A stretch of 64,000 nt of DNA from Raillietiella orientalis (Eukaryota): assembly GCA_036172245.1 (NCBI GenBank), contig JAYWIR010000004.1, forward strand, positions 3,658,001 to 3,722,000, given 5' to 3'. Positions 11,201 to 56,629 of the stretch are shown in pieces; position 1 is the stretch's first letter; each line of letters starts with the position of its first letter. A program made the translations under genes and the position numbers. The notes beneath the pieces were generated by a model that was not told where the DNA came from, did not search any database, and worked only from the letters and a program-made list of their open reading frames with translations.

Positions 11201-11370
11201 GTCAAATGTATCCTAATATCTGTCAGAGGGCTGGTGTTCGTTCCTACCCCACAGTGCTATTTTATCCTCCCGGTTGGAACCACCCTCAAGGAAAACCTAT
11301 TGGTGATCGCAGATATCGACCTGTGCTTGACTTTTTGACTGCAGCAATCCGCCTTCATGATGAACTGTGA
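8215..11370 (+). CDS. DNAJC10: DnaJ homolog subfamily C member 10 (ERdj5), ER-resident J-domain/thioredoxin disulfide reductase, 9 exons, ~762 aa
   Basis: Exons 8215-8379, 8822-9032, 9189-9397, 9446-9649, 9691-9906, 9953-10693, 10736-10875, 10925-11120, 11164-11370, all GT-AG, total 2289 nt in frame. Hydrophobic signal peptide, J-domain with HPDK and [11 protein letters not shown], four thioredoxin CXXC motifs (CSHC, CPPC, CSHC, CGHC), C-terminal HDEL. Confidence 0.96.
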
Positions 11371-22949: not shown

Positions 22950-23880
22950 CTAATCCTTCAAACCATGATTTCCGAGGTTGATGAGCGTAATTTCCTTCCA
23001 TGAAGCTTGTTTCCCGTCGGCTTAGGGTGTGTTTAAGTGGCTGCTGTTGATTAAGCTCGTTAGGATATCGGTGGGATTAGATCAGAGTGCGTTTCCTGTA
23101 TTAACTGTTCTGCAACTGTCGGCGAACAGTATGATAAGTGAAGGAATATGCCGATGTTAAATTAGAGGAGGCCAGAATAGAAAATTCTCTTTTATAATTT
23201 TCCTTTCTTTCGAGACCTTTGCTTTCCTTCCTCATTTGTTAGGGTGACATTTGGCGTTATGGTATTTGAAGTATTCTTGCTACTTTGCTTTCCCAACTGC
23301 TTTTTGTGCCTTTTAGCTTGCGATATCTTTAAATCAAAGTCTGAGTCTTCTCGCTTAGCATCCTTTCGGAAACATGCCATCCTTTCTTCGATTTTATTGG
23401 TCTGCTTCACCGTCTTCACCATCAGTGTTCTGATGAATTTCTTCTGTTTTGGATCCACTCATCTGGCTCTCGATGCTTTGCGTTCTTCGATCCTTTGTTT
23501 GTGTCTTTCTGTCTTTCGGCTGCTCCGTGTGGGTCTGCATCTCTACTTCATAAGCTCAAGTTTTCTTCACGTCAGATCTTCTCTTCACGACAATTCATCG
23601 GCAATACCAGGCTTTTCCTTATCCAGAAATGAAACCTTTCGTGCTCTTCCTTCGCATGAAAATCTCATCGCTTCACGATCTTCCGTCATGAAGTGACGAT
23701 TCCTCGTTACGCATGTGGGCACGGTCAATTCATTATCTCGAGAAGAGAGCATTAGATAGCAAAGCACTCCAGCTTCACTACCTCCGATATCGTGACTTGT
23801 TTTTTCTTTGCGTTTTCTTTTTTCTAAGCAACAAAAGACAAAATTGGATGTAAGGGAGCCATTCTTTTCGAAAAGCAAAA
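22950..23880 (-). mobile_element. Decayed LINE: K/E-rich ORF1 tail plus start of APE endonuclease
   Basis: K/R/E-rich minus-strand ORFs (23878-23192) followed by LAS.*FNIG and LIQETHSD near 23090, resembling the xNVxG and LQETH motifs of APE-type endonucleases. Confidence 0.45.
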
Positions 23881-27000: not shown

Positions 27001-29215
27001 TTTGATTTTCTTTTCTATCTTTCGATATCTTTTCTGCTCTCTTCAGACTTCTTGTGGAACAAAGAAAGTGATAATAGACGCAAACTGACGTGTTGTGCTC
27101 ATTCGTGATAGAATTAACCCTTCAGTTGTATGGATGGAAGAAAGGAAGAAGGGATGGAAGGAATCATCAAACCACCTTTTGGTTAGATGATTTTTACCTC
27201 AGGAAAAAAGAATTCTCGAGGTATTTTCACTAGTATTCCGACGTTCATACTCTTCGCTCATTGGACATCTCCACGACTACATCACAGCATTTTTCACCAC
27301 GATTTGCCTGCTTATCCTCTATCTTACGTCTCACATTCCAGCAAGCATCTTTTTTTTTTCTTGATTTAATAACTAGCACAAGGAATCTATCAGGATATCC
27401 GTCTTCCATCCAATCAATCACGATCCTAATTCTATATTTTGTACTTGAATGACGAGAATTTTCTCCCTCTTACCGTCGATTCCATAGTTGTGGTCACACG
27501 AGCATACACATTCTAAACCCATTTATTTGAAACTCTCAGAGGCACCAACCAATGATTTCCATCTGTTTTTTTCTTCTTAATAGTAGAGTTCCGTTGGCAT
27601 GAAGCTTACGAGAAGGTTGATTGAGGGGTAGGTAAGAAAAATAACTGCGCTTGCAAAATCTCTTTCTTGGACTGCCTTTACTAAGAGTCCAGGATTACAT
27701 ATGGCACTTCCGGTACTGGAATTCGGATTTAGAAGGGTAGGGGATCGGATTAAATTTGTGTACCAGTTCTAATGATAGAAAAAAAATTAGGGGAGGGGAA
27801 AAGAGAGAAATCATGGAAACAGAACTGCAACGAATTCTAGAGATCTCTCTAAATAAATTTGTATGAGACCACGTTATCTTATTAGATTTGAAAACCACAG
27901 CAACAAAAGAAACACTCCATCACCTCCGAGAGGGGTATGCAGTAATATCCTTTAGGCTAAAAAAGAGGAACATCCAGACGCCATTAAGAAATATGCTACA
28001 TTGAATTTCAGTGTTGGATGGAATAAACGCATCCCAAAGTTCTCAGCACTCCGAGTCGCAGGCATTATCTTGTGGAAGTTGGGACCTAAGAGTCATTCAG
28101 TCTAAGGATCTGAGCTCCATTCCATTATTTCCTTGAAATTTGTGCGCATCCCTACTTCGGGTCTAAGGTATGCAGCATGAGCGCCATAGTAGGCTCACCC
28201 TTACTCAGAATACCACTTGAGTTTATAAGTCAGTTCTTTCTTTTTCATAATTCTAGCCCTCGATCATTCAATGATTTATCCGACAGCCAGATTCCCAGGA
28301 CGCTTATCCGATGCGAGTTATCACTGCTACATTATCATCCTTTGTTTTTCTGATTCTGACTGTTAACCACGCAAATATTTTGGTTTCCAAGTTTTTACAT
28401 TATGTACCATTCCTAAAGTTGCCGTTCGTTTTCATCTCAGGGTCGGAGGTCACTCGTACTTGGTTTTGGTGGGAAAAGCACTCAAGAAGAATCGAAGAAC
28501 CCCTCAGCAGTCACCGACGCTCAAAGTCTGCTTTTTTTTTTTTTTTTTTTCAGCTTGCTCGATTGGGTGCTCCAGGTGAAACAACTCGTGAAAACAATTC
28601 CTCTCAACTCCACCTACCCTCTTGGACGACTGCGTAGATGCAGCAATTTTCCGAGCATCTTCAAGGATTGCGCCACCTTTTTGCTGAAGTCAATTCTCAG
28701 GAAGATGATAAAAGTCGTTCGACTATAAGCAGACGGGAATGTGATTTCGAAATTCCAGTATCTTTAATTTATTTCTTAGCATAATATCTATAGATACTCA
28801 TGTATACGCTCCTCGGTCTTTCGTTCTTGGCAGAATAACATTAAAAAGAAAAGAAAAAAAAGCCAAAAGGTAAGGCCGCTTCGTGTCTATTGTGAACTGT
28901 TAACTGTTAGGTGTTAGAATACATGGATTGCACTCTTTCCCTACAAGCTGCTATCCCATCTTCCAAGTTTTTAACATCTTGACTCCCCTTCGAGCGCAGA
29001 ATTGTAGAAAGGTCGGTAGTTAGTTTTCCCATTTCTGCCTCTGCCGAAATTGTGACATACATACTGCGCTTGACTCTAAAATCTGAGGCCAGCATTCTGC
29101 ATCTGAAAGATGCTGTGAATGGAATCTTAGTGGACCGGACACCACATTAACAAACAACCTCGGCTCGAGTAAAGAAAGCGGCACCTATGAGCCGTGTTGT
29201 CGTACAAGGGAATGC

Positions 29216-29221
29216 TTTATT
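29216..29221 (-). promoter_or_regulatory. Polyadenylation signal AATAAA after distal aquaporin terminal exon
   Basis: Plus-strand tttatt at 29216-29221 reads AATAAA on minus, just downstream of the TGA at 29260-29258. Confidence 0.55.
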
Positions 29222-29257
29222 ACAGTGTTTGCACAGTCCTTAATCCTATGACGTCAT

Positions 29258-29416
29258 TCATAAATCCGTTATGCGGTTATTGTCGCTATCGTTTCCGATC
29301 GCTTCCTGGTATCTGCTCACACTGAGATCATCGATGTCATCGAAAGATTTGTCGAACGAGTTGTGGTACAAAACAGCTCCGGAAATTCCACCCAAGCACG
29401 GACCAAGCCAATACAC
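29258..29416 (-). CDS. AQP: Aquaporin terminal exon 5b (distal): TM6 plus tail ending ...NNRITDL*
   Basis: catttcag|[52 protein letters not shown]; phase 0; AATAAA about 40 nt after the stop. Confidence 0.85.
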   Translation of the reverse strand: MYWLGPCLGGISGAVLYHNSFDKSFDDIDDLSVSRYQEAIGNDSDNNRITDL

Positions 29417-29639
29417 CTGAAATGTACGGGCAGAGTTCTAACATTCAGATGGTTGCCAACAAGATGGTAGTGATCAGGGACAATGACACAGTAACAGAAT
29501 CACAAAGGACTGCTATTTATTCACACGGCTGTGAATACGAACCATACCAACGTAATTATGCTTATCCTTAGGAATGATTTCATCGGTCCTTTTTCGGTTT
29601 GCAATGTCTTACAATCAAGGTCATCTGCAGCCCAAGTGG

Positions 29640-29670
<31 letters not shown>

Positions 29671-32600
29671 TTTCATGCCTTTCGAAAACAGTCACGAAGG
29701 CATCTTCACATGCCCACTAATTGCCCACAACTCCATCTCAACGGGTGTTCAAAGATTGCTCGAGAATGAAGCTTCTTTCGATTTTCCAGAGAGTACGTGT
29801 CATCATAAGGAGGCACATCTTGTTTCCCAATGAGTGCGGTTTCCATCTTCTGTTCCTGCTCCTCCGTTCGCCCGTCCTCGGCCGAGCACTCGTGGCACAC
29901 GCGGACACGAAGAAAGGGGGTTGCACTGAACGAGCTACCCCAAAGGACCAGACTCCGCATCGCTTTTCGTTTTCGGACGCAGCGCACTTGCAGTCCCTGC
30001 GCGTTCCCGGAAGAAACGGCAACAGGGCGGCTTTGCGCAACGTTTTCGGACGTCAGCTGCAGTGAGGAAATGACGAGAGCAAGATTGAAAGGACGGATCT
30101 GCTGCAATTACAAAGTTGCAGCAGCGTAATAGTACAGATACGGAAGCGGAGTGCTAGGAACCCGGGATTCCGAGAAATGGGTTCTTCTTTTTCGCGTTTT
30201 CGCTGGAGCAGCAGGAGGGGTTCGAGGGCACGAGGCCCTGAAAAAGAGGTACACTAGGAAGAAAGATTTTCCGTTGGATTTTGGAACATTCAGAGGAAGA
30301 CTGGCTCGAAAAAGAGAAGGCATCCTAGGAGAATCCCAAGCCAGGGGTCCAGCTACATCGAGGTTCTTCCTGCTTATGGTTGCATTTGTAAAGATTCGCA
30401 TCAGGAAAGGGTTAATCAATGACGCGTCTTCAAGAAAAAGCACGTTTTCGTGAAGACGAGGCTATTTGTCGGACCACTTCAAGTTGGGAAAACACAACTT
30501 TCGGCTCAAGATCAGGATGATGTGGGTGGTGCCGCAGATGAGATCGGTCAGCGACGTAGAGATAAGCAGCGGAGAGGGTAGACGTCCGCGATCCTACGCC
30601 CGCAATTTCTAATAGCGAAAATGCAGCGGACGTGCGGACGAGCCGGAAGGCTTGAGCGATTATACAGAAGGTCCAAGAAGACGAGAGGGAAGCTCGCTCG
30701 CAGTTTCAGCAATGCAGCTAATCGTGCGATCTTGCTGCAGATCCGGTAGACCGGTTCGAAGAATGCCGGATCCGCGTCGAGAAAGATTTCAGGATCAGGG
30801 AGAGGAGGCGTATGTCAAGCATTGCGCGCCGTCATCGAGCTTGCTGCCACTGTACAGGGAAAGCAGATGCTTGCATCGGAAGCATTCAAGAGGAAGGGAA
30901 GGGTTCGAGGAAACGAGAACATCGCGTTTGCTTCCATCCTCCCGCGAATCGCACCGCGTGGATCCGTTTGGACAGAGAAGCACGGAGGAAGGGAGAGACG
31001 GACCGCTCCCCTCGCTTTTGCGCATTTTCCGACTCACAGCTCCGAGACCAACACCGGGTTCTCTGGACACTGAGTGCACGGAACTCAGCTGAATTTCTGT
31101 CCTTCGACTCTAGAAGTGAGTGGTCAGTCAACGGAAGGATCACACGGAAAAAGACGCGTTCGATTGGTTCGCAGCAGCAGCAGATCACTCATCCCGGGAG
31201 CCAGGATGAACTCCACAACTCGTGCGTGTTTTTTTTTCGGATTTTCTTTTTTTTGTTTGATCCGCTGAGTGCTGAGGAACCGTCCGCCTTCTTGGGGGAG
31301 ACTCACGGAGCTCTTTGACACTGCCCACGCCATCCGAGGGTGCGTGTAGCAACACTTCAAATTAGCGGGCAATTCCGTAGTGATCACCCTATGAATCCAG
31401 GAAGGGTCACGGAAAGAGTCCGTTCCCTTCTTACGCTTGGTTGGGAACCCTGAAAGGAACCCTTGCCATGGTTGTCTCCCAAGGTAACCCCGAAGGGAAA
31501 CCACTTCCTTATTCCCTCCGGAGTGATCTTCCCGGAGGGGGCCACTCATTTCTCCTCCAGAAGGAACCCGGAAAGGATCCTCTCCTAAGTTTCTTCCTCT
31601 GAAGAAACCCGCAAGGGAATAGCTCCTTGTTGCTCCTCTGAAGAGAACTCCGAAGGTAGCTTCCCAATTTTCCTGAAGGCCGCTCCCCGAAGGGAGTGGC
31701 GTGCTTCTTTGCACTCTGGAGAGGCATCAACCAAGCCCGGTGGGTCAACTTCCAATCCCGGCTAGTCAACGGGGCATTTGGAGGTTTCCGGCTTCCATCA
31801 GTGCCCCATCCGAAGCGCACAGACAACCAGTGTTCATCCTGCGGAGGAGTACTCGAAACCCCTGGCGCAAACCCCTTCTCGGCATCAGTCCTTCACGTGG
31901 GGATTCGAACCAACAACGTTTGGTGCCACCACGCGCGGAGACCGCAGCCACACGGCCGCCAGCTTATGTTTGGAAGTTGTGGAGGAGAGTTAACCTTTGC
32001 CTTTGTTGTTGTGGACAAGGCAGTGACTTTCTTCCTCCCAGTGTTCCCCCTTTCCGCATGGGTGCTCGTGAACTCTTGCTTCGTTCGGACCTCTTGGTGG
32101 CTGCCACGACAACCCCACGAAAAGAAAGCGCCCGATGAATTCGTTCCGATTTCACTCTGGTGAAATTCCTTGGATCATCCCAACGGAAGTCGTGGATCTT
32201 TTCTGAGCTTCTCAAACCGTTGGGATTAAGTGACGGGTGGTCCTCTGGACACGACGGGAGAAAAGCAGTGCTGTTTTCCACATCTGTCTCTAGGAAGATC
32301 TGGGAGCCATAGGGATCCTGTAGCAAGGAAGATGTATGCAACTCGAATCAGGTTCTATCCTTTCCAAGGAAAGCAAAAGAGCTGAAGGAGGAGACGGATG
32401 ACGAGCTACAGCTTTTACCTTCATCATCCTGAGCCGCTACAAGACTGCGCAAAGACTTATTCGACCTCTGATGATTATCACTGTGCCTATTGGGTGACTC
32501 TTCCGGCATTAGGCATTTGAGCCCTCTCATAAGAGTCTCTTCAATTTTCTCTTTCCAAGATCCTCTCTCTCATGCAGAAAATCCTCCTTTATTTCTTCCC

Positions 32601-35600
32601 CATTTCTCTCGAACGGATGTCTTCCTGTGCCCAAAACAGGTATAATTTCTTGGGTGGTTCCTTCTCGGAGAATTCGGTTTCCGTTGGTCACGTTTTGTAA
32701 CTGTTTGGTGTTGCCTGGAGTTCTGGAATTTTCTCTTCCAATGTTTTCGACTGCTAGCTGAAAAGGAATGCGGGAATCTCACTCAAGGTCGACTCCATGT
32801 TCCCGTTCCCCTTTCGATTCTTCACGATTTTCATCAGCTGCTTCAAAAGGAGCGAACATCCGGCATGTGCCCTAAGACAGCAGTAACTGAATCGGGATGC
32901 AGCTGCTGAAAATCGAAATTTTCACGGAAAATTTGGCCTTGTTTTATCCTCTCCGAGTTTACTCCTCCACTCTGTTGTCCAGGGCACACTGAGAGTGATC
33001 GAAGGCCGGAGTATCAGATCTTGTCTTCGGCCCTTTTTCTCATCACAATGTGATCGAAGTCTTCCCCTTGTGCAACTGTGCTGCTTTCTTTCTATTTTTC
33101 CAGAGAATCCAGAGCAACATGGAGTTTAGTTCACCTTTAGGTTCATGGGACACGTGTGTGCACTTCGCTTGCATACCACTCCTCTGCGAAGGGAGAGCGG
33201 TTCTCTTAGTGAGCCTCAGCCAGAATAACCAGAATAACTCACTTTTGCTTTCCTTTCCTCCTTGATGCTGCTGTGTGATTCTGTGCATTTATAAAACCAT
33301 CATTAGCATGCTCTTTTTCTGCCATATTACTTCCATGACTGCTGCCCAATGTCCTTTTTCCCTCTGAGAAGTACATCTCGCATGATATTTGCTTTCTTCC
33401 GGTTGATTCCATATTTGTCCACCAGATTAAGCAAAAGCAGCTTTTGAGAGGATCAACACCTGCGTTTCACAAATGGAAAATGAAGATGGGCGTTGGTGCT
33501 GCTTTGGAATCGCTGTAATGAAATCTCCCTCCATACGGAGGTATTTCGGTTTGCTCTGCCTCGCTGTTTCTCACTCTTTTTGTGGTCCGGCACGTCCGGA
33601 AAAACGCCTACTTCTACTGTAACTCTTAACTGGGCAGTTTAACTGTAACTCTTACTGCCCAGTTTCCAAGAGAAGCTCACTGTCTTCTGCCCATTAGAGT
33701 TCCGCATTCTGTTCTTCATCCATTTTTTCTGCAACGTCTCGGACTTCGTGTGCAGCTGGTTTCGATCGCTTTTTTTAAAATTCTTTTTTGAAGGAAGCTG
33801 GTATCTACAAAATTGCAGCCATTCTGAGAGGAACTCTGCTAGCTTCTAGTGCCAAACAGCGCATCAGCACCAGGGAGGAATACGAGAAGAGGTTGTTTGG
33901 ACTTCGACTTGTCTCAAGAAACGAGAGCAATGCCATAGCAAGTGAGCATCTTCAGATCCAAAACAGATGAGATCGATCGGTGAAACTACTGAATGCTGTT
34001 GTAGTTTTCTGAAGTCTTTGAATCACTACCATTAATAATGTTATAGAAAACCATGTATATTAGGTATTATTTATAAGAAGCTATACTATTTGTAATGAGC
34101 AAGTTTCCTCAATAGCGGTAATAGGCATTTTATGTCAGCTTTGGAAATGTTTTGCGGAAATGTATTGAAAAAAAAAAAAAAAAAAATGCAGCCATTCTGT
34201 TGCTCCGCGTGAGAATCCCGTCTTCAATGAACGAGAGTTGACAGTTTCGGACTAATTTTGCAGTAAGGTAGATGCTTATCACACCAGGTGCTCTACTCTC
34301 GGTCATTCTCACTTTTCATCCTTTCCATCTACCACATGTTTATACGCATGTGGTATTGGGTACTGGATGAGCACATTCACGAGCATCACTCACTCATTCC
34401 GGAACCTGAGTTTCAGATAGCACGCAACGTAGCCAAATTCAGATCACGCACAAAACCACGGAGGAAATTCTTGCAAGAGGAATGCTCAAAGATTAAGAAC
34501 GAATTTCCGACCATTCGATCCCGTGCAAAAAGCTCGGTCAACGATCGGTACTTCAGTTTTTCATAGGCAGCGTTTCGCGGGGGTTATTCCCAGGGTCATC
34601 GCGGTTACTTGAACTCACGGTTAAAGTCTTCTCCATACAAAACGGTAACAGCGGAATTTTTTGCCATGTCGTTCTTACAAGATATCTTTCAAGGGAAGCC
34701 TTTCTCATCGAATGGTTCCTCGGCATTATTTGTTCCTGCCATATCATCTTCGCAACTTTTATACGGCTGGAATCGATTACTAAAGATGATTGTATATAGC
34801 GCGGCTGCCACCGTCCCTCCTAACAAAGGACCAAACCAGTACACCTAGAAATACATCCAAGTAATTAAGACAAGTGCTGTTTCTCTTACGCTGTATTTTT
34901 TGAAGAATCGTTTTCGACTTCACACACATCCTGATTTCAATCTGCATTTCTGTGGCAAAATGATAAGCCTTGGTTTACTAAGCAACTACCTTGCAAAATC
35001 TTTGCCTTTTCCCTAATTAGGGAACCCACAAAGACATTTCAGTGTTTTCGCAATGTATTTCCAATAATGGAACGTAACGAGTTAATCTGTTCAACAGGAA
35101 TCTGACCTCTCATTTTGATGTGTGTGTGTGTGCGTGTGTTTTTCTTGCTCATTCATGCCATGAATGAATAAGAAAAAACTTTCTTCATGACATCGTCATA
35201 ACGTCAAACGTGCTCAGAATCCTAACCCTTATCGCTTCTTATCTATAATTGGTGCTCGTGGGAAAATGCAAATTGCAAAACCCTTCTATCAATACGACAA
35301 AGAACTGCAAACGGAAGAAAAAAAAATTAAGATGGGGTTTCGATACCATTTCAGTGGTTACTTAGGATGCTTGACAAGTAGAACAAAGGGTTTCCGTGGG
35401 CATCGTAAATTACGATTCTGAAGATTTTACAAGAGCACAGATTCTCCGAGGGTACGCGAACAACGAACAGGCTCTTCCCAGTGGATTGAGACGCTTAAAA
35501 GACTGAAGGAAAGCTCGATTCAGACTCGGTAACTGCTTACTGTGGAGTACCACTATGGAGCCAACGCGTTCCGTTAATAAGGACTTTCGCCACTTGTGGA

Positions 35601-38600
35601 GGAGCATTGCACGCACGTCTGCTTGTTTTTCATAAATTATCGGACCGTTATTTAACTATTCGTCCAAAGCGTTAAGATTCTCTCTTTAATGTCTTTCACT
35701 GACGGGATGACAGATGTGCAACACACCATTGGTGATTCACATTTCTAGACGGGACCAGTGCGATTCTAAATCAGAACGTCTCACAGCGGAACTCCTAAAT
35801 CCATTTCGGATGAACTTTCGGAGCTCGAAGATTCGTATATTCGGCGAAGGTTCAGCAGCATCCTATCAGCAATTCAGCAAATTTCTTGCTTTTTTTTTTA
35901 ATCCACTTGCTGCCTCGGCGAAAGCTCATAACCCAAAACGGCGGAATTTCATGAAACAAACCAGTCCACCTCTTGCAACTTGACACCCTCCGCTGCACGA
36001 TGCGATGAGTCTCTGTACAACATCCTAAATGGCATCCTGGAGGAGGAGCAGCTCCAGCAGGAAGGAGGTTTCCCTCCGGAGAAGCTTCTGGGATCAGATG
36101 CTACTCTCGTGAAGCTCCCACGTGATTTCTACATTCCTGTCGTTTCGTTCCCTGGCGCCTCCACCCATCTCACCTCATTCCAGCAAGCAGCCAGAAGATA
36201 ACTTGGCTGCTATGCGCGCGGCTTCTTTTTCCGCAGTCGCACCTGCCTCCATCTATCCTTCTTGTTCTTAATTTTTCGCGTAAAAGAGGTCAACCTGCAC
36301 GCCAGACCACCTGCTCCTGTGAGGTCACCACAGGAATGGACCCCTCCGAAACAAGTTTGCAAGGAGAGCCTGGTGGGTGACACGGCACTAAATTTTCCCG
36401 CTAGGCTCGTTCAGGGGAAAAGTTCAAGGCCGTTTTCTTGAATGAGAAGTGTGTTGGCAAGTGTCGTTTGAGTTTCCCAAAGGAAAGGTGAAGACGAAAT
36501 CGGTCGGAGGAAGATGTGAACCGGTCCACATACGTTTTTACGAACGACGACTCACCCAGTGGTTTTTCCAGATGCCCGTCATTACTGCGGGTCCAAATGT
36601 CCTGGCTGGGTTCATGCTGGAACCCGTGAACCTGATCTGAAAATGGAAAAGAGCAAAGTGTAAACTGCAGGCTCAAAACGGAGTACGTTGCGACGCATCT
36701 TGCGACAGGAAGGACAGATCCCAAGTCTCCAGAGTAGTGCTCTCCTCCTCCCCATGTTGTCGGAGAGATGGACAATCTGAAGCAGTGTCCACCTCATTGG
36801 ATTTTGCTTATTTTTCGGCTCTCTTCGATCTGAATTGAATTCAGAGACTAAGAAATGAAATGAAAAGAAACCCATTTAAGAGTGGAAACTTCACTGGAAG
36901 CAGTCATCATGAAACATTCGAAGGGACTCAAGGGACTCCATAAGTAGATCGCTTGTCTGATAGATTCTAGATCACTTTTTCTTTAAGTATTGCTGCTAGA
37001 TGAATCGGTGCTTCTGGAGAAGTCTTCTTTATAGTCATGCCAAAAATTGGATCAAGCATAAGAAAGGAAAAGAAATAGAGAGTTGTTTCCAAAAACAGCA
37101 AGCGGTTCCAAGCTGGAATAATATTTAGGTCCAGTCTTCACTTCAAAAGTGGTTCAATGAGAGATCCTGGACAGAAATTAAGGGACTCCTGGAGTGGGGT
37201 CGTAGATCAACAGCCTAGTCGTCCTGAGAAGAGGAGCCGCGCCATCATACTGGAGACGTGCTGTCCACTCCAAGACACACCAGCAGCATTCGAGGAGGCT
37301 TACAGGGGGAAACAGGGCGAATATCGGACTGGGGCCGCGCACTCTCCCTCGCCCTCTCAGCAGCCCAAGCGCCAGTTCCTGCGAATGGTCGTCGGGTCAG
37401 TGGGAGCTCGGGATCCACAGAACCACGACGTCCTGAAGGGGATGGAAACCCCTTCAGCTCTGAGGGAACGGAGGCAGCACGTTGAATGGAGAGGTCTCGG
37501 ATCCTTCATCGACTTCATGCTCCGTCCATCTTCTGGCGCCCGTGCAGAGTTGCGAAAGTTTCTGTGTTCGCGGAGAAAACCCGCTGGTGTCATCCGCGAG
37601 GACCAAGTGTTGGAAGCGTGCACCAGCCCCATGACTGCCACAGTCATCCGAGTAGCGTTGCCCGATCGAAGTCGCTTCAATGACCCATCAGCGGTTCGGG
37701 CTTGCTACCGTGTGGATCGACGTACGTCTTTGAGGCGAGCTTGCGTCTACTGGCAGGATCAGCCAGCAAGACATCGATGCCGTCCAGCAGATGTCCACTG
37801 GGCACACCCTCCAGGTGACTCAGCTCGGACCTCCGTCGTCGAGTCTCCAGGTTAGACGCGGTTTAGACGCGCGCAACGGCAGAACGCAAGCGAGCCGTCT
37901 TGAGCGAATGGCGGCGACGTCGGAAGTCAAGAGGAAGGCTGCGATTACGAGCCACGGCGAGGCGCTCTCATGTCGCGAAGGAAGAAAGGAAAGAAGAAAG
38001 CCCAGTCCCTGCTTTCGAAAGCCTCATCACTCTGACAAAGACGATTCTGAGACTCTCCAGAAGGTGGGCAGCTGGACGGAACGGATCCGAAATACTGTGG
38101 AGGCTGCGGAAAATCTCTCCCTTGCGTCTCCTTCTCTCAGCAGCCGATCCGGATTGTTATCTAGATCGGCCACTGCTCGAGGTAAATTGCTGAACGAGGC
38201 TGCAATTCTCGAAGAACGGAAGCTGCGACTCAGAAGAGAAACCACAGGAGAAGGAGGGATCGCTTCAGAGTGAAAGTGCTCAACCACTCTTACGAAATCG
38301 GTGGTGCGAGTTCTTTTCCCTTCGAACCGTGCAAGTGAATCTGTAGAAAGTTCTGCGACACGTTGTTGCGCCGATTATTCTCTATGGAGTTCCGTTTTCA
38401 AAAGACTTCCTTCTTGTCCCCATCCTACTGGGTAGCCCTGCCACGGAAGAATGTCTGAAGCTTTCCGTCCACCCAGACAGATGTTTGCCTGCTTCCCTCT
38501 CTCCGGTGGCAACCTGGTACGTCAGAGAACATCAGATTCAGTCCAATGAGGAATTCGATGGGACGGGCTGAATCTTTCGCCGTAAGAAGTGACAAAAGAA

Positions 38601-41600
38601 CCACCCGTCTTGTTCATCAAGGTCCGAGTGGATTTCTTGCTTTCCCCATGCAAGCGATGCACGCGCAGATCTCAGGAATGCAGCTGTGAGCCCTCGCATC
38701 GCACGAGGGAGCGCACGGTGCGATACCTTCCGTTCCTGTGCGAAAGCAACCCGAGATTTCTACCTTGAGCCACAACCTCAAATCACGCCAAGAATCATGA
38801 GTCTTGAGCCTCCAGGCATCGAATTGCACGGATGGTTTTCCCGGTTGACGCCAGTGAGCACGAGCTAGAACCGCCCCGTCCGGTTCAAAGAACGCTACGC
38901 TTTTGGAAGACTCGTGGGGACCCTGCCCATCCGAGCTGTTGAAGTGTCATCATCGTCGATCGCACTTACCGCTGCAAGGTGTCCAGCAGTGACGGATAGA
39001 CCAATAGCCAGCGGTATGGACCCTTTGATGTCGTTCCGATTCTCATCGCAAGCTCCGAACACGACGAATACGAGGAGGAATGTGATGAAAAATTCCACCC
39101 CAAATCCTTGGATAGGGGTTATGCTGGGATCGATCGTCGTCATCCCCAACGATCCATGAAGGCTGCTGGGAGTCACGGCCTGGAAACCATCGCTCGTGAT
39201 AGGAGGCAGAAACAGAGGCAGGAGGAGGAGGAGGAGGAAGAGGAAGCAGGGATCTCTTTCCCTTAGGGATGACCGCTCGAACAACGCTACTGTGTTTGGT
39301 TCGGGCGTCCAGTGATATTGGGAAGGAGGAACGGGCCATCGACAAAACAGGACAAGAGGGAACGGAGAGAGGTGGAGCTCCTTCAGTGTGGAGCTCTGTT
39401 TGTCCGAGGCGTGCCGAGGAGAACGTGGAACGGGAAAGGAGGGGGTTCACTGAAACGGGAACCCCACTTTGGCGTCTGCTTCCAACAGGAAACCACACCA
39501 GCAACGTTGTTTCGCAAGCCTCGTGCGCTTCGCGTCCCAAAGATCGGATCGCTGCCCAGGTGGCGTGGATGTAGAGCTGCGTCTTCATGGGGGACGTGGG
39601 CCTGCGTTCTCGGCTGCTGAGGAACCTCTTCCGTTCTCTCGCGACGTGCTCCCGCGAGAATTTCGTGCTCGCCGCTGCTGCCCCTTCTGCGTTGCTTCCC
39701 CTCTTCCAGACGGCTGTGCGCGTGAGTGCGTCTCGTCTGTCCTGATGAAGATCCTCATCCAGCGCCGCTGGAAACTCTCGGGCCGAAGCCCACTTCCATC
39801 CATCTTCCCAGGATCTCTAATGGCTTCGGCAATAGGCTTCTTCCCAAAAACATCCTTCAAGTGCTGAGATGAGCTTTCGTCTTGTCCCTCCTTTTGCCCT
39901 TGCCGCTCAGGGACTCTTCCTTCCCGCTGTCTTTGCCTGAGACCCCCGAAAAACCGGGTCGACAGAGAGGCAAGGGTTCTAACCCTGCTTTTCCACCCTC
40001 TTCCTCTCCCGTGGCCTGTTTCTTCCTCTCCGTACTATTCCCGAACTCCGTGCGGCCTAAGCCGGGAAGTTCCCTGCATGGAGCAGATTGCAGCAGACTG
40101 GTGATCCTTGCAAGAGCTTTGCGCCTGTAGACGGCTTCCTCGGGAACCGCTTGCTTCCTTGGCTGTTATTCCCTTCTAGTGGTGATGGTGCGCGCGAACC
40201 GCCGAAGAGGGAGCTCGAGGGAAGAAGACGGGCAATTAAGGACGCGGATTCCCTTTCACTCCTGGGTTGATTAGGGGAGCAGGTGCTCGGTAACCGCCAG
40301 AAGGCAAAGAGACGCCCGCTTCTCCCACCTCCTCCCTTCCTCATTTTCGCGACCAGGGGTCCCGGTCACGCGCTAAAAGTGCGGAGAGGTGCAGATGCTC
40401 CGTAGCTCCTCGCGAGTTGTGTGCCATCTAAATGGGAAATGGAGAAAGAAGAGGGAGGGAGGGAACTCGTGTTCGGAATGTGCGCCAGGAGTGGTGAGGA
40501 AGAGATGCGCGTCGTTCGGCTCGGTTCCGGAGGAGATGAGATGTCCAGCTCCCAGGATATCTAAGCGCTCGTTCCTCTCCATCTCACAGAAGGGACCTCC
40601 GAGCCGGATGCCCTTCAGTCGGCATCCGAGACCGACGGATTTTCAGAGGAGGCACTGCCAGTTTCGTCGCGCCGCGGTACCGCCGGATCACCTAGACGGA
40701 AGGAGTAGAGACCGTACGCGATCCAGGAAGACCCCAACAGGGAAGCTTTGAGCACCCAACGGGACCGTCCCACGAAGCTCAATGAGGAGAGGACTGGGAG
40801 GAGAAAGTCAGTCCGGAAGAGATGTCCTGGGGGAGAGAGATTCCTGGAGCTCGTCCCGCATCGGCCGGCGGAGCGAACATATTCTTCTTAGGATCCCGAG
40901 ACTGCAGAGAGGAAGTGTGACTCACATCTGGGATCACACTGACCGCGATTGGTCAAGAAAATAGTGGTCTGCTCCTCCGCCTTCCTCCTCAATTTCCCCC
41001 TCTTTCTCCGCATGAGAAGTCAATCAGCCCTTGTGTTCGTAGGCGAGCGTCTGGGGTCCAAGGGAGGAAGAGATGATGGTCAAAACAGGAAGAAGAGGAG
41101 GGGAGACCTAGAATATGCTTCATCCTCGAAAGAGGTTCCTTCCTTCGGACACGACGCAGGAAAGTCCTCCACCGCACTATCCGGTTCTCCTTCTTCCTTT
41201 TTCAAAGCTCCCAGACTTCGAGGCTCCCAGATCGAGCGGAACTTCTCGGAGATGTCAGGGAAATCGGCCTTCCTGGGACATTCGGGATTCGTGCCCCCGG
41301 TTGTGTCGGAGGTCGAAGGAGAGAGGAGTATGGATCAGGGTCGAGGAACGCGGTGGGCATCGCTACGAGGCATGCTCGAGGCGGAGGAAGGCCGCCTTCC
41401 TTCAGCATTGGCCGTTCCTTACTCCAGCATGTGAGGAGATGGGGAAGAAGAAAAGATGCAGGGAACAGAAGCTCTCCTGAGGCTTCAGGAGGGGTTTCGA
41501 TCGCTCACTGGGCGCGCACCCTACCTTGAGGACAGCGGAACCGGCGATCGCTCCGGAGCATTGAGCCACCACGAAGAGGAAGCCCTGGATTAGGTTGGTC

Positions 41601-44600
41601 TTCCCTGTGATCAGCATACCGATGGTCACCGCCGGGTTGATGTGGCATCCGCTGACGTGGCCTATCACCTAGAAGAGAGAAGACCTTGTGACATGCTTGG
41701 CGCAAAAAGCGAAAAGCGGGTGGTTTTTGCAGCAGTGGTGGAGGTGCCTCAAGTCTCCTCGTACCTGTCGTATGGCTTTGACGCAGAGGGAAAAAAGGAA
41801 GAGTGGACAAGCATCTCTGGGGCACTTCCAGCGACCTGCTCGTAGACTGTGTTGCCCTCTGTTCCCTTTGGTTGCGTTACGCAATGGCCCTTGATGCACG
41901 GATGGACAATCCCAGGGGCGTGATAAAGCGTCTCTCCGTGCGCGATACCCTCTCGCCTGCCGCATTCCTAGCAGCTCTTTGCTGCTGCCTACGCAGGATT
42001 GCGGTGGCCTGAAGCTAAGCGAGAGGAGGACTACACAATAGGGACTCCATTCTGCTCCGTCCTGGGCTTCCTGCGGACGGCAGCAAGATAGCCTCACCTG
42101 GGGCACACTCGGGTGGAACTTGCCGGCATCCCGGAAAGGATGCAGAGGACGCCGTCCAGCGGACAGCGATCCCTTCCCGTGCCCCTCAGATTTTTTTTCA
42201 TTGATATTTTATCTTATTTTTATTTTTGTTTGCCTCTTCTCCCCCCCCCCCCTTTCTCCGCTGTCAAGACGAACATTACCGGCCTGCATGCCGGTTACTC
42301 GGCAGGTTCCAAGCATTTTTGGACAATTTAGGGCCGATGGTCCTACACATGTATGTTTATTAGTTTTATGATAAACGCCCCGGAGCTACCAAGTGTTAAA
42401 CCCAGCGACAGCTCCTCAGAAGGCGACTGGGGACGCCGCGTCAGCCCACCTGCCGTCACTCTCCCATCGCCCACGCTCAGCTTGCCTCTGCCCGGTTCAG
42501 CAACCGCGTTTCGAGGGCAGTGGTTGGAGAAAGAGGAAGGGGGAGAGGATAAAGAAGGAAGGAGGAATATTCCCAACCTCACCAAGTTGATAAGGCTGTC
42601 TGCGTTTAGGGAGATGCTTATCCCGATGCTGCTTCCGAGAGATGCATCTGAAGAAGCGGCGGGGCTGCGTTCAGTGAAGCCTTCCCCTTCCTAGAACTCG
42701 GAAGAGAAGAGTAGTAGTGGCCAGCGCTCCCCCGAGTGCATTGCGCCTGATTCTGCGACGAGTACACGGCTCTGCAGAAGTAGGCAAACTCTTTCTTGCC
42801 CTCCGCATCGAGGCCGCGGGTCTACAAAGACTCACACGCAGACTTCTCGGCAACCTCTCGCCTCGTAATGAGAGCCCCGCCCGAGGACGTGTGCCAGTGT
42901 CGCCCCAGAGGCTACTCCGAGGCAGCGGCGTTCGTGACAAGTGCGACGTTTCTCCCTTCGCCGACGCGCTTAGGAATTTCAAAGCTTGCGAACAGGTCTC
43001 CTTCCGCTTCCTCCCCGAGGCGTGACGTGAAAATCGAGTGGATGCCCAGCCGCCTTCGGGAGCCAGATGATCACATGCGGGACGGCATCCGCGGTCGGAA
43101 GCGCAAGACTCTCTAGGGCGCGCGCGCGCGAACCGTCGCTCGTTCCCTCTCTGGATGCGCTCGTGGTCCCTAGGAAGACACCCTTTTCGCAGAAGAGTGT
43201 CTTCGGCACGATCTCGACCGCGGCGGGTCTCGAGAAGCCATCGATCACTCGCCTTGTCTGTCACTCCGAGTCATTAGCCACGAGTCTTCAGCTGCTTGTT
43301 ACCGGCGGCGCTCGATCGCCTTGCTGGTTCCGGATCGGCGATCGCTGGAAGCAACTCAAGCGACCTGGACTCGTCCTTTCGGGTATGCACGAGTGCGACG
43401 GATCAGGGAACGCATCACGGATCGAGGATCCCAAGACTCTGTAGCGTGGTCGCTGCTGCTGCGCCGGAGGGAGAGGCAGGGGAGGTGGAAGAAGTGGAAA
43501 AACAGGGAGGACAGGGAAAACTCCCTTGAGACAGGCGATCGGAGGATATGCCTGGAGGCATTTTCCGGGATTCTTCCACTTTTTCGCAGCCACTTCTCAC
43601 TACTTTCTCCATCGGCGCTTGCTGGGTGGTGGCGGGAAAGACCACGCCACGCTCCGGATGCGATCTCAAGTAGCCCTGTTCCGGCTCTGTAAGATAGCAT
43701 CCTAGGCGGAAGTGCATCTCTACGATCCCGGGCGGAATGACCCAGAGTCTTTTTTGCTTGAACGTTCGCAGATTCGTCTTCTCAAGGGAGCAGCACTGGA
43801 AGACCCCGCCGAAATTTCCCGCCAAAACTCTGTGCCATGGCTGAGGCTTCGCCGTGTTAATTCTGCCTCTGCATAGCTGCCACTCGAGACTTCGTGCATG
43901 GGAGGGGGGAAGAGGAAAGGGAGGGGGGGGAACAGGCAATGTGAATGAAGATGCCCATCTTGCAGAACGTACGTGTTTCCATCGCGAGAAGAAAACGCCT
44001 CCAAGGCGTTAAAGGTGCTTCTTCCTTGCCATCCAGCAAGACTTCTGTTCCTCTAAATAAAGAAACAAGGAACAGTGTGCTCCCAGGAACGGAACCCAAA
44101 ATGCGAAACCGAGGAGGAAGCGCAAGGGATTCTTCTCCAGCAGCTCGCTGATGCTGATCGAGGACATAGCTAGCGGGCACGAATCGCACATCCGCATGTC
44201 GGCAGCGCAGAGTCGCGCTTGCCTGATCTTGACCGCGATGGGTCCCAAGGAGCCATCAATCACGCGGTTTTGTCGGTCACTCCGAGTCATTAGCCACGAG
44301 TCTTCAGCCGCTTGTTACCGGCGGCGCTTGCTTGCCTTGCTGGTCTCGGATCGGCGATCGCTGGAAGCGACCCAAGCGGTCCGGACTCCTCATGTCTTTC
44401 GATTATTCACGAATACGACGGATCGCTCGCGCTCATCCCTGACGATAACGACGACACTCGCTTCCCTGCAAGCGGCTCGACTGCTGGGGAAGCAGGGAAC
44501 GTACTTCCGCTCGTAGATCAAACCCCCGTCGCACTGCCAGCACTTCTACGGGACTCGCAATGCGGACCCCTTGGATGGCTAGGGACACACAGAGGAAGTG

Positions 44601-44922
44601 CGGCAGCCAAATCTTGGAAGGATCTGGACTGCTGCAGTCGCCCATCGCGGCAGGCACGGGAGAGAGAGAAGGGAGGGAGGGAAAAGACAATAGGAGGGAT
44701 GCTGCTTACCTGTGCAATGGAGGCCACGATCAAGCCGAAGCAAAGGGAAATCTGCGTTTTCGTAGGGGGGTCCCCTTCGGTACTCAGACAAGAGAAACTT
44801 CCGAGAAGAACGAGCAGGAAGGTGCCCACGAATTCCGCGAGCACGGCTCTCCAGAGCTTTCGATTCTTTTGTGACACTTCCTTGTATCCTAAAAATATCC
44901 GGAAGCAGTCCAGCTTTCCCAT
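29258..44922 (-). CDS. AQP: Aquaporin (MIP family; classical water-selective Drip/Prip/AQP4-like), 4 shared exons plus two alternative terminal exons, 267 or 268 aa
   Basis: Minus-strand exons 44922-44710, 41668-41525, 39179-38970, 36636-36556, then 34844-34689 or 29416-29258, all phase-0 GT-AG junctions. Motifs [46 protein letters not shown]. Two NPA boxes; ar/R residues F, H, S, R. Confidence 0.95.
31417..31700. repeat. Degenerate ~39-40-bp tandem repeat (about 7 units); part is homologous to 62075-62184
   Basis: Recurrent GAACCCNGAAG/AGG core near 31444, 31484, 31527, 31563, 31604, 31645 and 31683. Blocks AGTCCGTTCC, TGGTTGTCTCCC and CTTCCTTATTC are shared with 62075-62184. Confidence 0.6.
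33814..34199 (+). mobile_element. 5'-truncated retroposed insertion (~360 bp) with A19 tail and 13-bp target-site duplication
   Basis: TGCAGCCATTCTG at 33814-33826 and again at 34187-34199, directly after A19 (34168-34186). Confidence 0.7.
34689..34844 (-). CDS. AQP: Aquaporin terminal exon 5a (proximal): TM6 plus tail ending ...FDEKGFP*
   Basis: tatttctag|[51 protein letters not shown]; phase 0, compatible with the exon 4 donor. Confidence 0.88.
   Translation of the reverse strand: MYWFGPLLGGTVAAALYTIIFSNRFQPYKSCEDDMAGTNNAEEPFDEKGFP
35119..35138. repeat. (TG)n microsatellite
   Basis: tgtgtgtgtgtgtgcgtgtg. Confidence 0.8.
36556..36636 (-). CDS. AQP: Aquaporin exon 4 (second NPA loop)
   Basis: ccattttcag|[27 protein letters not shown]|gtgagt; 81 nt, not shown in this frame by the ORF track. 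Confidence 0.93.
37157..38330 (+). mobile_element. Decayed LINE ORF1 (Tx1-like, zinc knuckle) inside aquaporin intron 3
   Basis: [14 protein letters not shown]...TGHTLQ near 37740-37815 resembles the YxGQPxxCxxCxxxGH knuckle of Tx1/L1 ORF1, followed by a low-complexity S/R/E-rich tail. Frameshifted. Confidence 0.4.
38970..39179 (-). CDS. AQP: Aquaporin exon 3 (TM4-TM5)
   Basis: tttccag|[70 protein letters not shown]|gtaagt. Confidence 0.93.
41525..41668 (-). CDS. AQP: Aquaporin exon 2 (first NPA loop, TM3)
   Basis: tctctcttctag|[48 protein letters not shown]|gtaggg. Confidence 0.93.
43210..44424. repeat. Pair of ~195-bp diverged direct repeats (43210-43404 and 44225-44424) in aquaporin intron 1
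   Basis: Identical core GTCACTCCGAGTCATTAGCCACGAGTCTTCAGC, then GCTTGTTACCGGCGGCGCT and CGGATCGGCGATCGCTGGAAGC in both copies. Confidence 0.9.
44710..44922 (-). CDS. AQP: Aquaporin exon 1 (N-terminus, TM1-TM2)
   Basis: [41 protein letters not shown]...[14 protein letters not shown] followed by gtaagc donor. Start ATG is inferred; an upstream exon cannot be excluded. Confidence 0.9.
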
Positions 44923-47314
44923 GTCCGCGATTTGTTTCTCCGATGCCAAAGTTCGAATCGCTAAAGCACCGAATTGCCGGAACCGGAGGAATCGGGAATC
45001 TGCTCACAAGCAAGCATCATTAGCATGCGGCGGGAACAAATCACGGAGTAAGCGGCATGAAGGTTACACCTTAGCAAAGTCTCTCTGCGTAACCCGCAAA
45101 CCGTTCGCGCTCGTGATCGCGATATCTTTGTTGCTCGGATACGGAATGCACTTGTGTGATTCCAGCATGCGGGCATTTTGAATGGAGCTCTGGGTTCCTC
45201 TTTTTTTTTTTTTTTTTTTTTTGCTGAAGCTCACGATAATGCAAAGTATGTGGAGTTTGGATAATGGCTGAGTTCTGCGTAAACACTTTTATCTTTCAAA
45301 TGTCTTTGTTTGTACGTGAGCACCTCATGTGACTTATCACATGTGTGCTGTATGTTGTTTTGCTGATGAAAATTTAAGGAAAAAAAATTGCGAAACTAAC
45401 CATATTCCTTTTTTCTCATGGCTTTATCCACGAGCGTTTCTCTTCCTCCGTTTCGTGGGTGCCTTCACATGGAAGATACACACAAGATAATTCTAGGATT
45501 GTGATCGGAATCGGAATTTAGCAGCCATCATGCCACTCCTATTAGCAAACGACGATCGTTCATGTTTTTAGATGGTACACTTTTTCTAAAACGAGTGGCA
45601 GGCATCTTCGGCAGGCAAGGAGGTTTTTGCACAGTCAGCAGTTACGCTTAAGAATGCCGAATGAAGACGAGAATTTCACCTTCATGAGAAAAGTGCAAAA
45701 CATCGTACACCGAAGCTCTGCTTCCCTACCACCTTTTCGCGCAAGCTCCACTGATATAGTTGGCAAATCAAGCTGCAGATTATTTGGATGCAGCAGACAC
45801 ACAGAAAATTCGTTATCATCTCGCCGATTCGAGGATGCTTTTGGTCTTCAAGTCTCTCGAAGCGGAGAGAGATCCAAAAAACTCTCTATTTGCATATTAC
45901 AACGTTTTCTTTCAAATGATCAAAATGCCCAGTACCCAGATGAATAATCCTGATGCTCTCGTAATTGACGGCGGTGAATGTTCAAATGTTTCTTTTATAC
46001 AACAAGAAAAATGAAATGTTTGCCGTGTCCTCCTTGTGCTGACTCATAGTTTTCATGATAGCAACTCGTTCACAAAGAACAGGAAGGGAAATAATCGTCT
46101 ATTTGAAAGTTATAGAATACAGTTCGCTGAAACCCCTGCTATTTTCTCCAAGGAAGGCATCACTCACAATGAGGATACATAAAAATTTGCCTTCTATGCA
46201 TGAATGTTTGGTGACTAAAGGGAATGGAGACAACGGAGAAATTTTTTTGCAATTAAGGAATTCGTTGTGATCTTCAAACTGAGGCAAGAACACGAAAAAC
46301 ATCAGATGCAGCTATATTTGAGGCAACTGAATTTCGGTGTAAGATTCGGAAATAAGTGATGTCGTTTTGTCAACGAAAACGCTTTGCACTTTGTTCGAAA
46401 CGCCGGGTTCCATGTACCATGAGTGGTCCTAGAGCAAGAAAAAAGTAACAGACATTTAATGATACCATTCTGACAACGCAACTGTAATGAGTAAAAGGAT
46501 GCAAAAGGATAGTGAAGTCTTTTAGATCGTAAGCGGATAACCTTCTGATATAATAAAGTGCTTACAATGAAATATGAATAAGAAAAACTGGTCACCATCA
46601 GTTTATCACATGAGTATTACATATCGTCTCACCTTGAAACTGATCATCACTCATACTAATTAAGCCGTACCATTGTCTGTCAGATTTGATTACTTAGATT
46701 TTGCATTCTTTATTGTGAATACGCTGAAGCGTTTCCTCTATTTCACTTTTCGCTATTTGTCAGTTCTTTTTTAATCAAGTTGTGGATTATCTCCCATATG
46801 ACATTTGATATGGTGTTCGATTTCCAAATCTTATACACTCGAAGTGAGTAGTCTTGAGAGTGTGTGACTATTCAGAAGATGAAGAAAAGCGTTGTGCCCA
46901 GGCGGAACAGTCATTCAATTCGAGCTTTCCTATAGTCTCAAAAAAATCAGAGGAATCGAAAAAAAAAAAAATCTCTTAGAATACAATCCTCTTGATTTGT
47001 TTAAATTGCTTACGAAAACCTTAAATTTAAACCGAAAGATAGCCTGTAGATAGGCGTATTTTTGCACTTCTAATGAAGAATTCAGTATTTCACGGGATCC
47101 ATAGTCACAATCTATCGTAATTGCCAGTTTCCTTTCGTGGATGTATGCGAAACCAGATGTGCTTTTTGATGAACACTTGAAGAGTCACTGTGCCCCTATC
47201 ATAACTGGAACTTTTTCCCCGAAAACACTGATCCCTGTGAGAACATTTCTGGTAAGCTGACTAGTAATCAAGGTTAAACAAGAAACTGCTGTTTGTTTGG
47301 TATTTTTACGTCAA

Positions 47315-54900: not shown

Positions 54901-56629
54901 TGCTGTGTTTGATAGTCATGGCGATTTAGTATCTAATGCTCCTCACATTCCTGTACACCTGGGATCAATGCAAGAAGCAGTGCAGTATCAGGTTCGCAGC
55001 CTTCAAACTGAGATTCATAAGGGTGATGTTTTGCTCACCAATCACCCGGCTGCTGGAGGCACACATCTTCCTGATCTCACTGTTATTACTCCAGTCTTCC
55101 TTGAACCTCATGCACACCCTATATTTTTTGTTGCCAGTCGAGGTCACCATGCTGACATTGGTGGCATTACTCCTGGTTCCATGCCAGCTAACTCAACCCA
55201 TATTGATGAAGAAGGCGCTGTCTTCAAGACATTTAAACTTGTTGATGGTGGACTCTTCCAGGAAGAGAAACTACTTGCTGCTCTTAATTCACCTTCCTTA
55301 ATTCCTGGATGTTTTGGAGCTCGCAAAATACAAGATAACTTGGCTGATTTGCAGGCCCAAATAGCAGCCAATCAGAAAGGCATTTATTTGGTTAATGAGT
55401 TGATTGTTACTTATGGTCTGGATGTGGTGCATGCATACATGGGTCATATTCGGAAGAATGCAGCCCAGGCAGTGCGTCATGTCTTGAAGCAAATGGGTAA
55501 AACAGTGAGCAAGGTTTTAGAGGCCTCAGATTTCATGGATGATGGAACTGAGTTGCATTTAAAGGTTACCATCGACCCAGTTGAAGGATCGGCGGTTTTT
55601 GATTTCACGTGAGTAAGCAGCATGTTCAGTTCCATGATTGGAAGTATATTAGAGGGACAGGTTACCAGGTTCTAGGAAATTGGAATGCTCCTAAAGCCAT
55701 CACCATGTCTGCCATCATTTATTGCCTACGTTGTCTTGTCAATAAAGAAATCCCCCTTAATCAGGTAACATTTTCAGCAAAGCTCTTTTTACTTATTAGT
55801 CTAGCTTCATAGGGGTGCTTAAGTCCCATAGAACTGATTCTCCCACATGGAAGTATCTTGAATCCTTCAGAAGATGCTGCAGTGGTAGCTGGAAACGTCT
55901 TAACTTCTCAAAGGATAGTAGATCTCATATTCCGCACATTTGGATGTTGCGCTGCCTCGCAAGGATGTATGAACAACATTACATTCGGCAATGAGTATTT
56001 TGGCTTTTACGAGACCATAGGTGGAGGTAGTGGAGCTGTGAGTGTTTTTCTCATGAATGCTGGAGAATGCTTTTTGTAATTTAGGGCCCTCACTGGCATG
56101 GACGTAGTGCAGTGCATACGCACATGACCAATACTCGCATTACTGATGTGGAAGTATTGGAAAAATATTTCCCGGTTATTTTGAAAACATTTGGTATACG
56201 GTATGGGAGTGGAGGTGCAGGAATCTACCATGGTGGAGATGGGATCAAGCGGGAACTTTTATTTCGAGAACCTGTTTTTTTATCGTTGCTGACGGAAAGA
56301 CGTGTTTTCCAACCATATGGCATTTGCGGTAGGTCGTAGGCCATCTGTCAGTATCATGTTTCTGTAGGAGGACAACCTGGAAAACGAGGTTTCAATCATA
56401 TACATAGGAAAAATGGCCAAGTTGTTAACATAGGTGGAAAAGCATCATTACCAGTATTTCCAGGAGTAAGTTTTATGTTCTCCTATATAATAATAAATAT
56501 TCCTATATGATAATAAAGGATGTTCTGAGCATATCAACTCCTGGTGGTGGTGGATTTGGTGAGTCACAAGCTGAGGAAGCCAGCGAAAAAAACTTAGCCA
56601 CCAAGCAGAAAGTCCAGAACACTGTATAA
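51901..56629 (+). CDS. OPLAH: 5-oxoprolinase (ATP-hydrolysing; hydantoinase A + B domains), 15 exons, ~1264 aa
   Basis: Exons 51901-52083, 52192-52383, 52637-52869, 52917-53079, 53127-53212, 53262-53463, 53522-53782, 53828-54330, 54371-54787, 54844-55608, 55653-55764, 55813-56037, 56085-56328, 56368-56465, 56519-56629, total 3795 nt in frame. Motifs [92 protein letters not shown]. Confidence 0.97.

Follow-up and report, generated by a model that had tools for sequence, protein, structure and literature searches.

The closest described precedents for the gene analysed here are found in barnacles. As set out in the main text of Lind et al. (2017, PLoS One, PMC5513457), the Balanus improvisus genes AQP1 and AQP2 comprise six coding exons each; exon V carries a stop codon and is either included or skipped, exon VI ends the protein when exon V is skipped, and both mRNA forms were present in RNA-seq of one individual. 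In the S1 sequences of that paper the isoforms split directly after NHW, and the alternative parts start with VYWAGP or VYWLGP followed by ..GG.. in each case. The same text also draws attention to AgAQP1 of Anopheles and to a pair of transcripts in the amphipod Gammarus chevreuxi. For Anopheles gambiae, the text of Tsujimoto et al. (2013, PMC3774814) reports organ-specific C-terminal variants, AgAQP1A and AgAQP1B, produced by alternative 3' splicing; in an amphipod survey (PMC8699810) the word 'splice' is absent. Here we describe an aquaporin gene with two alternative exons, 5a and 5b, each encoding a sixth transmembrane segment (TM6) and a C-terminal tail, in a stretch of 64,000 nucleotides (nt) of Raillietiella orientalis contig JAYWIR010000004.1 (positions 3,658,001 to 3,722,000), hereafter the window. 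The two-exon design is real, but it is not new: it is already published for barnacles in the part of PMC5513457 outlined above, and it is annotated in shrimp.

The window holds a single minus-strand gene of the MIP (aquaporin) family with two alternative exons for TM6 and the tail (Table 1). Exon borders were set from a minus-strand reading of positions 29000-37500 and from stop-to-stop open reading frames (ORFs) over 28500-46000. Every junction of the gene model has GT/AG borders and phase 0. Introns 1-4 measure 3041, 2345, 2333 and 1711 nt, respectively; 7139 nt separate exon 4 from exon 5b, and 5272 nt separate the 5a stop from 5b. The spliced products would have 267 amino acids (aa) with 5a and 268 aa with 5b. 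Exons 1-4 together cover positions 4-205 of the 222 positions of Pfam MIP (PF00230), leaving about 17 profile positions, those of TM6, for the last exon. The exon 4 end, acceptors, stops and exon lengths given in a preliminary description of this DNA were all reproduced.

Both spliced products were searched against the window with tblastn (E<=50). No second copy of exons 1-4 was found in the window, each of the four being present once, which argues for one gene with two TM6 exons; the best stray matches had E 0.023 (28216-28299, plus strand) and E 0.17-0.18 (32859-32782, in the 5a-5b interval). The preliminary description had likewise inferred one gene and had seen no further copy of exons 1-4 between 5a and 5b; the window contains no other MIP exons. 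We assign a probability of about 0.8 to the reading that this one gene has four constitutive exons, which encode TM1-TM5 and both asparagine-proline-alanine (NPA) loops, followed by the alternative exons 5a and 5b, and makes two isoforms.

Table 1. Features of the aquaporin gene, with positions counted from the first letter of the window.
Feature	Position	Strand	Product or description	Splice signals and stop	Pfam MIP positions and score
Exon 1	44710..44922	-	ATG at 44922; 71 aa; N-terminus and TM1-TM2 start	donor CAG/GTAAGC	4-56, 24.6 bits
Exon 2	41525..41668	-	48 aa; first NPA box HINPAVT	acceptor ...cttctag; donor AAG/GTAGGG	61-107, 59.1 bits
Exon 3	38970..39179	-	70 aa; TM4-TM5; His of ...TAGHLAA	donor GCG/GTAAGT	113-177, 46.5 bits
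Exon 4	36556..36636	-	27 aa; second NPA box SMNPART; ends ...KNHW	donor TGG/GTGAGT, phase 0	180-205, 35.3 bits
Exon 5a (proximal alternative)	34689..34844	-	51 aa; TM6 and 34-aa tail ending KGFP	acceptor ...tttctag; stop TGA 34691-34689	
Two donor-like sites after the 5a stop	34617..34678	-		CTT/GTAAGA (GT 34678-34677); ACC/GTGAGT (GT 34618-34617)	
Exon 5b (distal alternative)	29258..29416	-	52 aa; TM6 and acidic tail ending NRITDL	acceptor ...atttcag; stop TGA 29260-29258	
AATAAA poly(A) signal	29216..29221	-	about 37 nt past the 5b stop		

Exons 5a and 5b are recognisably related to each other. They agree at 11 of their first 17 residues, with synonymous differences in 8 of these 11 codons, at exactly the codon pairs that the preliminary description had listed. 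When 21 codons were aligned without gaps, the two exons shared 16, 13 and 6 of 21 nucleotides at codon positions 1, 2 and 3, respectively (positions 1 and 2 versus 3, p=0.003, Fisher's test). By the Nei-Gojobori method, the proportion of synonymous differences (pS) over these codons was 0.85, which is saturated, and that of nonsynonymous differences (pN) was 0.31. A hidden Markov model (HMM) of TM6, 25 residues long and built from the 33 of 50 homologues with a recognisable TM6 start, was run on all 2689 six-frame ORFs of the window and gave 5a a score of 37.5 bits (E 2e-10) and 5b one of 31.3 bits (E 2e-8). With 7.8 bits (E 0.47) for the third-best ORF, 5a and 5b are the only TM6-like sequences among the 2689. 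By these scores both exons supply the sixth helix, of motif [VI]YW.GP..G, that completes the MIP fold; past TM6, the two tails show no likeness to each other, as had been noted before. Taken together, the codon-position pattern, the excess of pS over pN and the TM6 scores support an old tandem duplication of the terminal exon in which both copies appear to have been kept under purifying selection at the protein level, in agreement with the earlier suggestion.

Several results nevertheless weigh against two functional exons. Pfam MIP was unreported for 5a or 5b alone at E<=0.01. Searched on their own, the 5a and 5b peptides had no match among longer proteins at E<=10 in a set of 5.8 billion proteins, and the best BLAST match of their tails among 199 collected relatives had E 0.2. 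For the related gene pripL of the salmon louse no splice variants were seen (PMC4539701), indicating that the two-exon design is not universal. A single-isoform gene would suit part of this evidence: one of the exons, more likely 5b, would then be an unspliced relic of the old duplication or of a decayed tandem gene, as the lower TM6 score of 5b, the tails without detectable homologues and the single form of pripL might suggest. This explanation is unlikely in view of the saturated third codon positions beside conserved positions 1 and 2, a pattern not expected of a long-dead exon. Exon 5b also retains an open frame of 52 codons, an AG acceptor and an AATAAA 37 nt past its stop, and its end matches a C-terminal motif of relatives that no other of the 2689 window ORFs carries. 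Moreover, barnacles and shrimp use both exon types, and remnants of other MIP exons are absent from the window.

An alternative origin for 5b would be a separate transcription unit starting within the 5a-5b interval, with upstream exons of its own. Several ORFs of 110-200 aa do lie in a GC-rich block of the 5.3-kb interval, but these ORFs match neither Pfam nor any part of the aquaporin, no Rfam family is present, and a lone TM6 with a tail is not a functional MIP; we regard this origin as very improbable. Pfam gave no match for nine ORFs (133-257 aa) from the introns and from the 5a-5b interval, for the further intron ORFs 37079-37852 and 44294-45178, or for the extragenic ORFs 3085-3519 and 23181-23693. 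No Rfam family was found over positions 28000-46000, and ARAGORN found no transfer RNA (tRNA). A nested gene feeding 5b was dropped as a candidate on this ground, the interval and intron ORFs being without Pfam matches and the region without an Rfam family or a tRNA.

With one gene and two used exons as the preferred reading, the form of the switch is the next point. The preliminary description had called 5a and 5b alternative last exons; the two exons stand, whereas the terminal position of 5a is doubtful. Two donor-like sequences, GTAAGA and GTGAGT, occur 10 and 70 nt past the 5a stop, and in a search for the canonical poly(A) signals no AATAAA or ATTAAA was present for 2.1 kb past that stop, the first being at 32593. 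The lack of a nearby poly(A) signal together with the donor-like sites indicates that 5a may be a skippable, stop-carrying exon. We lean towards 5a being a penultimate exon of this kind, with both mRNAs ending at the AATAAA past 5b. On the barnacle precedent, exon 4 would either join 5a, or skip 5a and join 5b; when 5a is included, 5b would trail as 3' untranslated region, as reported for barnacle exons V and VI. The support that the donor-like sites lend to this arrangement is weak: three GT[AG]AG sites lie within 320 nt versus about 0.6 expected. The donor-like sites past 5a could be due to chance, and both 5a and 5b could be true terminal exons with their own cleavage and poly(A) sites, exon choice being coupled to alternative polyadenylation. 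Both exons come with an acceptor and a stop of their own; A/T-rich stretches are present about 500-650 nt past the 5a stop, and the poly(A) search covered the canonical signals only. Such an arrangement is possible but doubtful. It would leave 5a with no AATAAA or ATTAAA over 2.1 kb whereas 5b has its AATAAA at 37 nt; it takes no account of two good donor-like sites 10 and 70 nt past the 5a stop; and in the barnacle case, as described in PMC5513457, the stop-carrying exon V precedes exon VI in one transcript.

The likeness to B. improvisus AQP1 and AQP2 extends to the whole layout. In the sequences available from PMC5513457, as here, one gene has four common coding exons, a proximal exon with a stop and a distal exon; the split falls after NHW, and each alternative exon has its own TM6, tail and stop. 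The B. improvisus exon-VI sequences in the supplement of that paper were compared by eye, and the distal form of AQP2 ends ...ERTTDI there, whereas 5b ends NRITDL. There are also differences. The distal isoforms of B. improvisus are longer (299 aa in AQP1 and about 296 aa in AQP2, versus 268 aa here), two paralogous genes of this design are known in that species against one in this window, and identity to the barnacle proteins is only about 58-61%. Splicing is proven in B. improvisus and predicted for this gene. PMC5513457 speaks of 'C-terminal' variants, and its available text contains no discussion of a TM6 swap.

Isoform pairs of the same kind are annotated in RefSeq as 'aquaporin AQPAe.a-like': X2 of 263 aa (P0003) and X1 of 298 aa (P0217) in Amphibalanus amphitrite, and X2 of 261 aa (P0211) and X1 of 364 aa (P0210) in Penaeus japonicus. 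This contradicts the earlier expectation that annotation pipelines would keep only one of two such exons. Both pairs break at the same place, after (N/D)HW, and have separate TM6 segments; X2 combines an A-type TM6 with an FRA tail, and X1 combines a [VI]YWLGP TM6 with a long tail ending ERTT[DV]I. The correspondence is not complete: 5b has neither the K/R that X1 forms carry at TM6 position 15 nor their YK, and 5a has F instead of A at TM6 position 4. The mosquito system is more distant in design. In AgAQP1A and AgAQP1B, as given in the text of PMC3774814, TM6 is shared and only the last 17 or 11 cytoplasmic residues differ, whereas here TM6 is swapped as well. Dipteran DRIP isoforms (Contarinia, Sitodiplosis) also differ only after ...FQVRKG. 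Judged from the predicted products, these tail-only variants of Anopheles and other Diptera are analogous but of a different design, the variation at our locus not being confined to the tail.

To place the gene among its relatives, exon 3 was searched and the constitutive part was used for a tree. Of the 129 candidates from the exon 3 search, 50 proteins passed E<=0.001; ranked first were barnacle aquaporins (Pollicipes, Amphibalanus) with 69-70% identity, followed by insect DRIP and PRIP proteins. The spliced products have about 52-61% full-length identity to the best collected relatives. The tree of the exon 1-4 core had 33 rows, 32 of them relatives picked from 225 as named or close, with 193 left out. 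In this tree the gene lies outside the insect DRIP (100/97) and PRIP (100/99) clades, as would suit an arthropod that is probably not an insect. By its sequence the gene is a classical (AQP4-related, PRIP/DRIP-like) arthropod water channel.

Two further matches were recorded. The top match of the representative search, Strigamia maritima T1IHJ3 (UniRef, P0051, 561 aa), has two separate MIP stretches and represents either a model in which tandem genes are fused or a true double aquaporin. A metagenome locus (L001, 396-509) that matched residues 5-42 of 5b at 53% was rejected: it lies on a GC-rich bacterial contig and shares an 11-residue word by chance. It is an example of how short transmembrane-like words mislead pattern scans.

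We assessed whether 5a and 5b correspond to the two exon types of barnacles and shrimp by ungapped BLOSUM scores over the first 24 residues. Exon 5a scored 69-71 to the V-type exons of barnacle and shrimp versus 58 and 62 to the VI-type exons. For reference, barnacle V versus shrimp V scored 87-91, and barnacle VI versus shrimp VI scored 72. Exon 5b showed no preference for either type (57-64 to V-type versus 62 and 52 to VI-type), and the exon 1-4 tree gives no supported placement of the gene among arthropod classical aquaporins. The assignment of 5b to the exon-VI type by TM6 similarity consequently failed, and without a TM6 tie to VI-type exons the orthology of 5b and exon VI rests on exon order and the C-terminal motif. 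We consider it rather more probable than not that the 5a/5b pair shares ancestry with the barnacle and shrimp exon pair.

The C-terminal motif was examined further. The C-terminus of a class I PDZ ligand reads [ST]-x-[ILV]-COOH, with Ser or Thr at position -2 and a hydrophobic last residue. Exon 5b ends T-D-L, which fits this consensus, and 5a ends G-F-P, which does not. The bare [ST]-x-[ILV] end is common, being present in 102 of the 2689 window ORFs and in 18 of the 199 collected relatives. Specificity is limited to the longer pattern R[TI]T.[ILV]-COOH, which occurs in 1 of the 2689 window ORFs, namely 5b, and in 7 of 225 collected relatives. Among its carriers are barnacle X1, ending ERTTDI, shrimp X1, ending ERTTVI, a Rhipicephalus protein, ending DRTTSI, and two transcript families, ending DRTTTI. 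This test is partly circular, which counts against it, as the pattern was written after 5b had been seen; despite this, the chance rate of such an end is plainly low. In the Rhipicephalus microplus protein KAL3216351.1 (P0133, 214 aa) a truncated TM6 (VFWLGPILGGVIAAGG) runs straight into ...EVVADRTTSI; the model may be mis-spliced or may represent a short variant, and its end indicates that the RTT.I end is also present in chelicerates.

Vertebrate AQP4 provides a point of comparison from the same fold family. The solved structures closest to the VI-type barnacle isoform were those of AQP4 (E 6.5e-72). AQP4 has its own PDZ-ligand end, S-S-V, in place of T-D-L in 5b; this class I end is a ligand of alpha-syntrophin and an anchor for the channel. 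Among the known isoforms of AQP4 the difference lies at the N-terminus (M1/M23), and we know of no alternative TM6 in this protein.

The functional consequence of exon choice can be considered from the division of the protein between shared and alternative exons. Both NPA boxes sit in exons 2 and 4, which are common to the two products, and of the aromatic/arginine (ar/R) filter residues assigned by homology the His lies in exon 3 and the Arg in exon 4. With the NPA boxes and ar/R residues in shared exons, similar permeability is expected for both isoforms; the preliminary description had proposed one pore with different TM6 segments and tails, and the coverage of MIP positions 4-205 by exons 1-4 bears this out. 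Exon choice would set whether the channel carries the putative PDZ anchoring end. Most plausibly, then, the choice between 5a and 5b would alter trafficking or anchoring of the channel, and not its permeability.

A more speculative interpretation takes the two exons as complementary. Single-form relatives (a tick protein and two transcripts; P0004 and P0202 are of this kind) combine an A-type, FRA-like TM6 with an RTT.I end, which suggests, though no more than suggests, a proximal copy in which the helix was retained and the end lost, and a distal copy with the reverse history. Exon 5a, like exon V, would have kept the conserved TM6 and lost the [DE]RTT.I end; 5b, like exon VI, would have kept the PDZ-ligand-like end while its TM6 drifted. 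TM6 faces lipid, and its exchange on inclusion of 5a might in addition affect membrane domain or array behaviour. On this tentative view, 5a and 5b would form an ancient complementary-degeneration module common to this lineage, barnacles and decapods, with 5a inclusion acting as a switch for release from a PDZ scaffold. Neither the RTT.I-type motif with its PDZ reading nor the degeneration reading was in print in the open-access text searched.

These results are of use chiefly for annotation: the locus should carry two isoforms, of 267 and 268 aa, and 5b should be labelled neither an orphan ORF nor a pseudogene fragment. They also extend the barnacle and shrimp splice design to a further, rather divergent arthropod aquaporin (about 60% identity), which argues that the pair of TM6 and tail exons is old and has been maintained. 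One lead of note is the PDZ-like end conserved in the distal-exon form: an end of the R-T-T-x-I/L type on this form leads to the idea of scaffold-dependent placement of an otherwise identical water pore. The idea is relevant to crustacean osmoregulation, and it opens no long-standing question.

Some features of the gene region and its surroundings were also recorded. GC content is uneven, the block 36001-46000 with exons 1-4 having 49-57% and most of the window 34-44%; exons 1-4 sit in GC-rich DNA (52-57%), and 5a and 5b in DNA of lower GC. GC content at third codon positions is 0.59-0.79 in exons 1-4, 0.43 in 5a and 0.56 in 5b. Intron 1 holds a direct repeat of 127 nt (43254-43380 and 44270-44396) with 88% identity between the copies, which lie 1016 nt apart and are possibly two copies of a short interspersed element. 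In the 5a-5b interval, the GC-rich stretch 31440-31990 (minus strand) contains loose repeats of ...CCTTCGGG/GGTTCC... units as well as a segment resembling a tRNA by eye; the stretch gave no tRNA in ARAGORN, no array in TRF and no match in Pfam or Rfam.

Neighbouring genes were seen elsewhere in the window. Two ORF pieces at 9929-11213 (plus strand) match Thioredoxin (PF00085) with E 1e-33 and 4e-11 and look like exons of a multi-thioredoxin-domain (PDI-like) gene. At 53254-55609 (plus strand), exon-like ORFs match Hydantoinase_A (E 1e-17 and 1e-27) and Hydantoinase_B (E 1e-92); by these domain matches, the gene that adjoins the aquaporin is 5-oxoprolinase-like.

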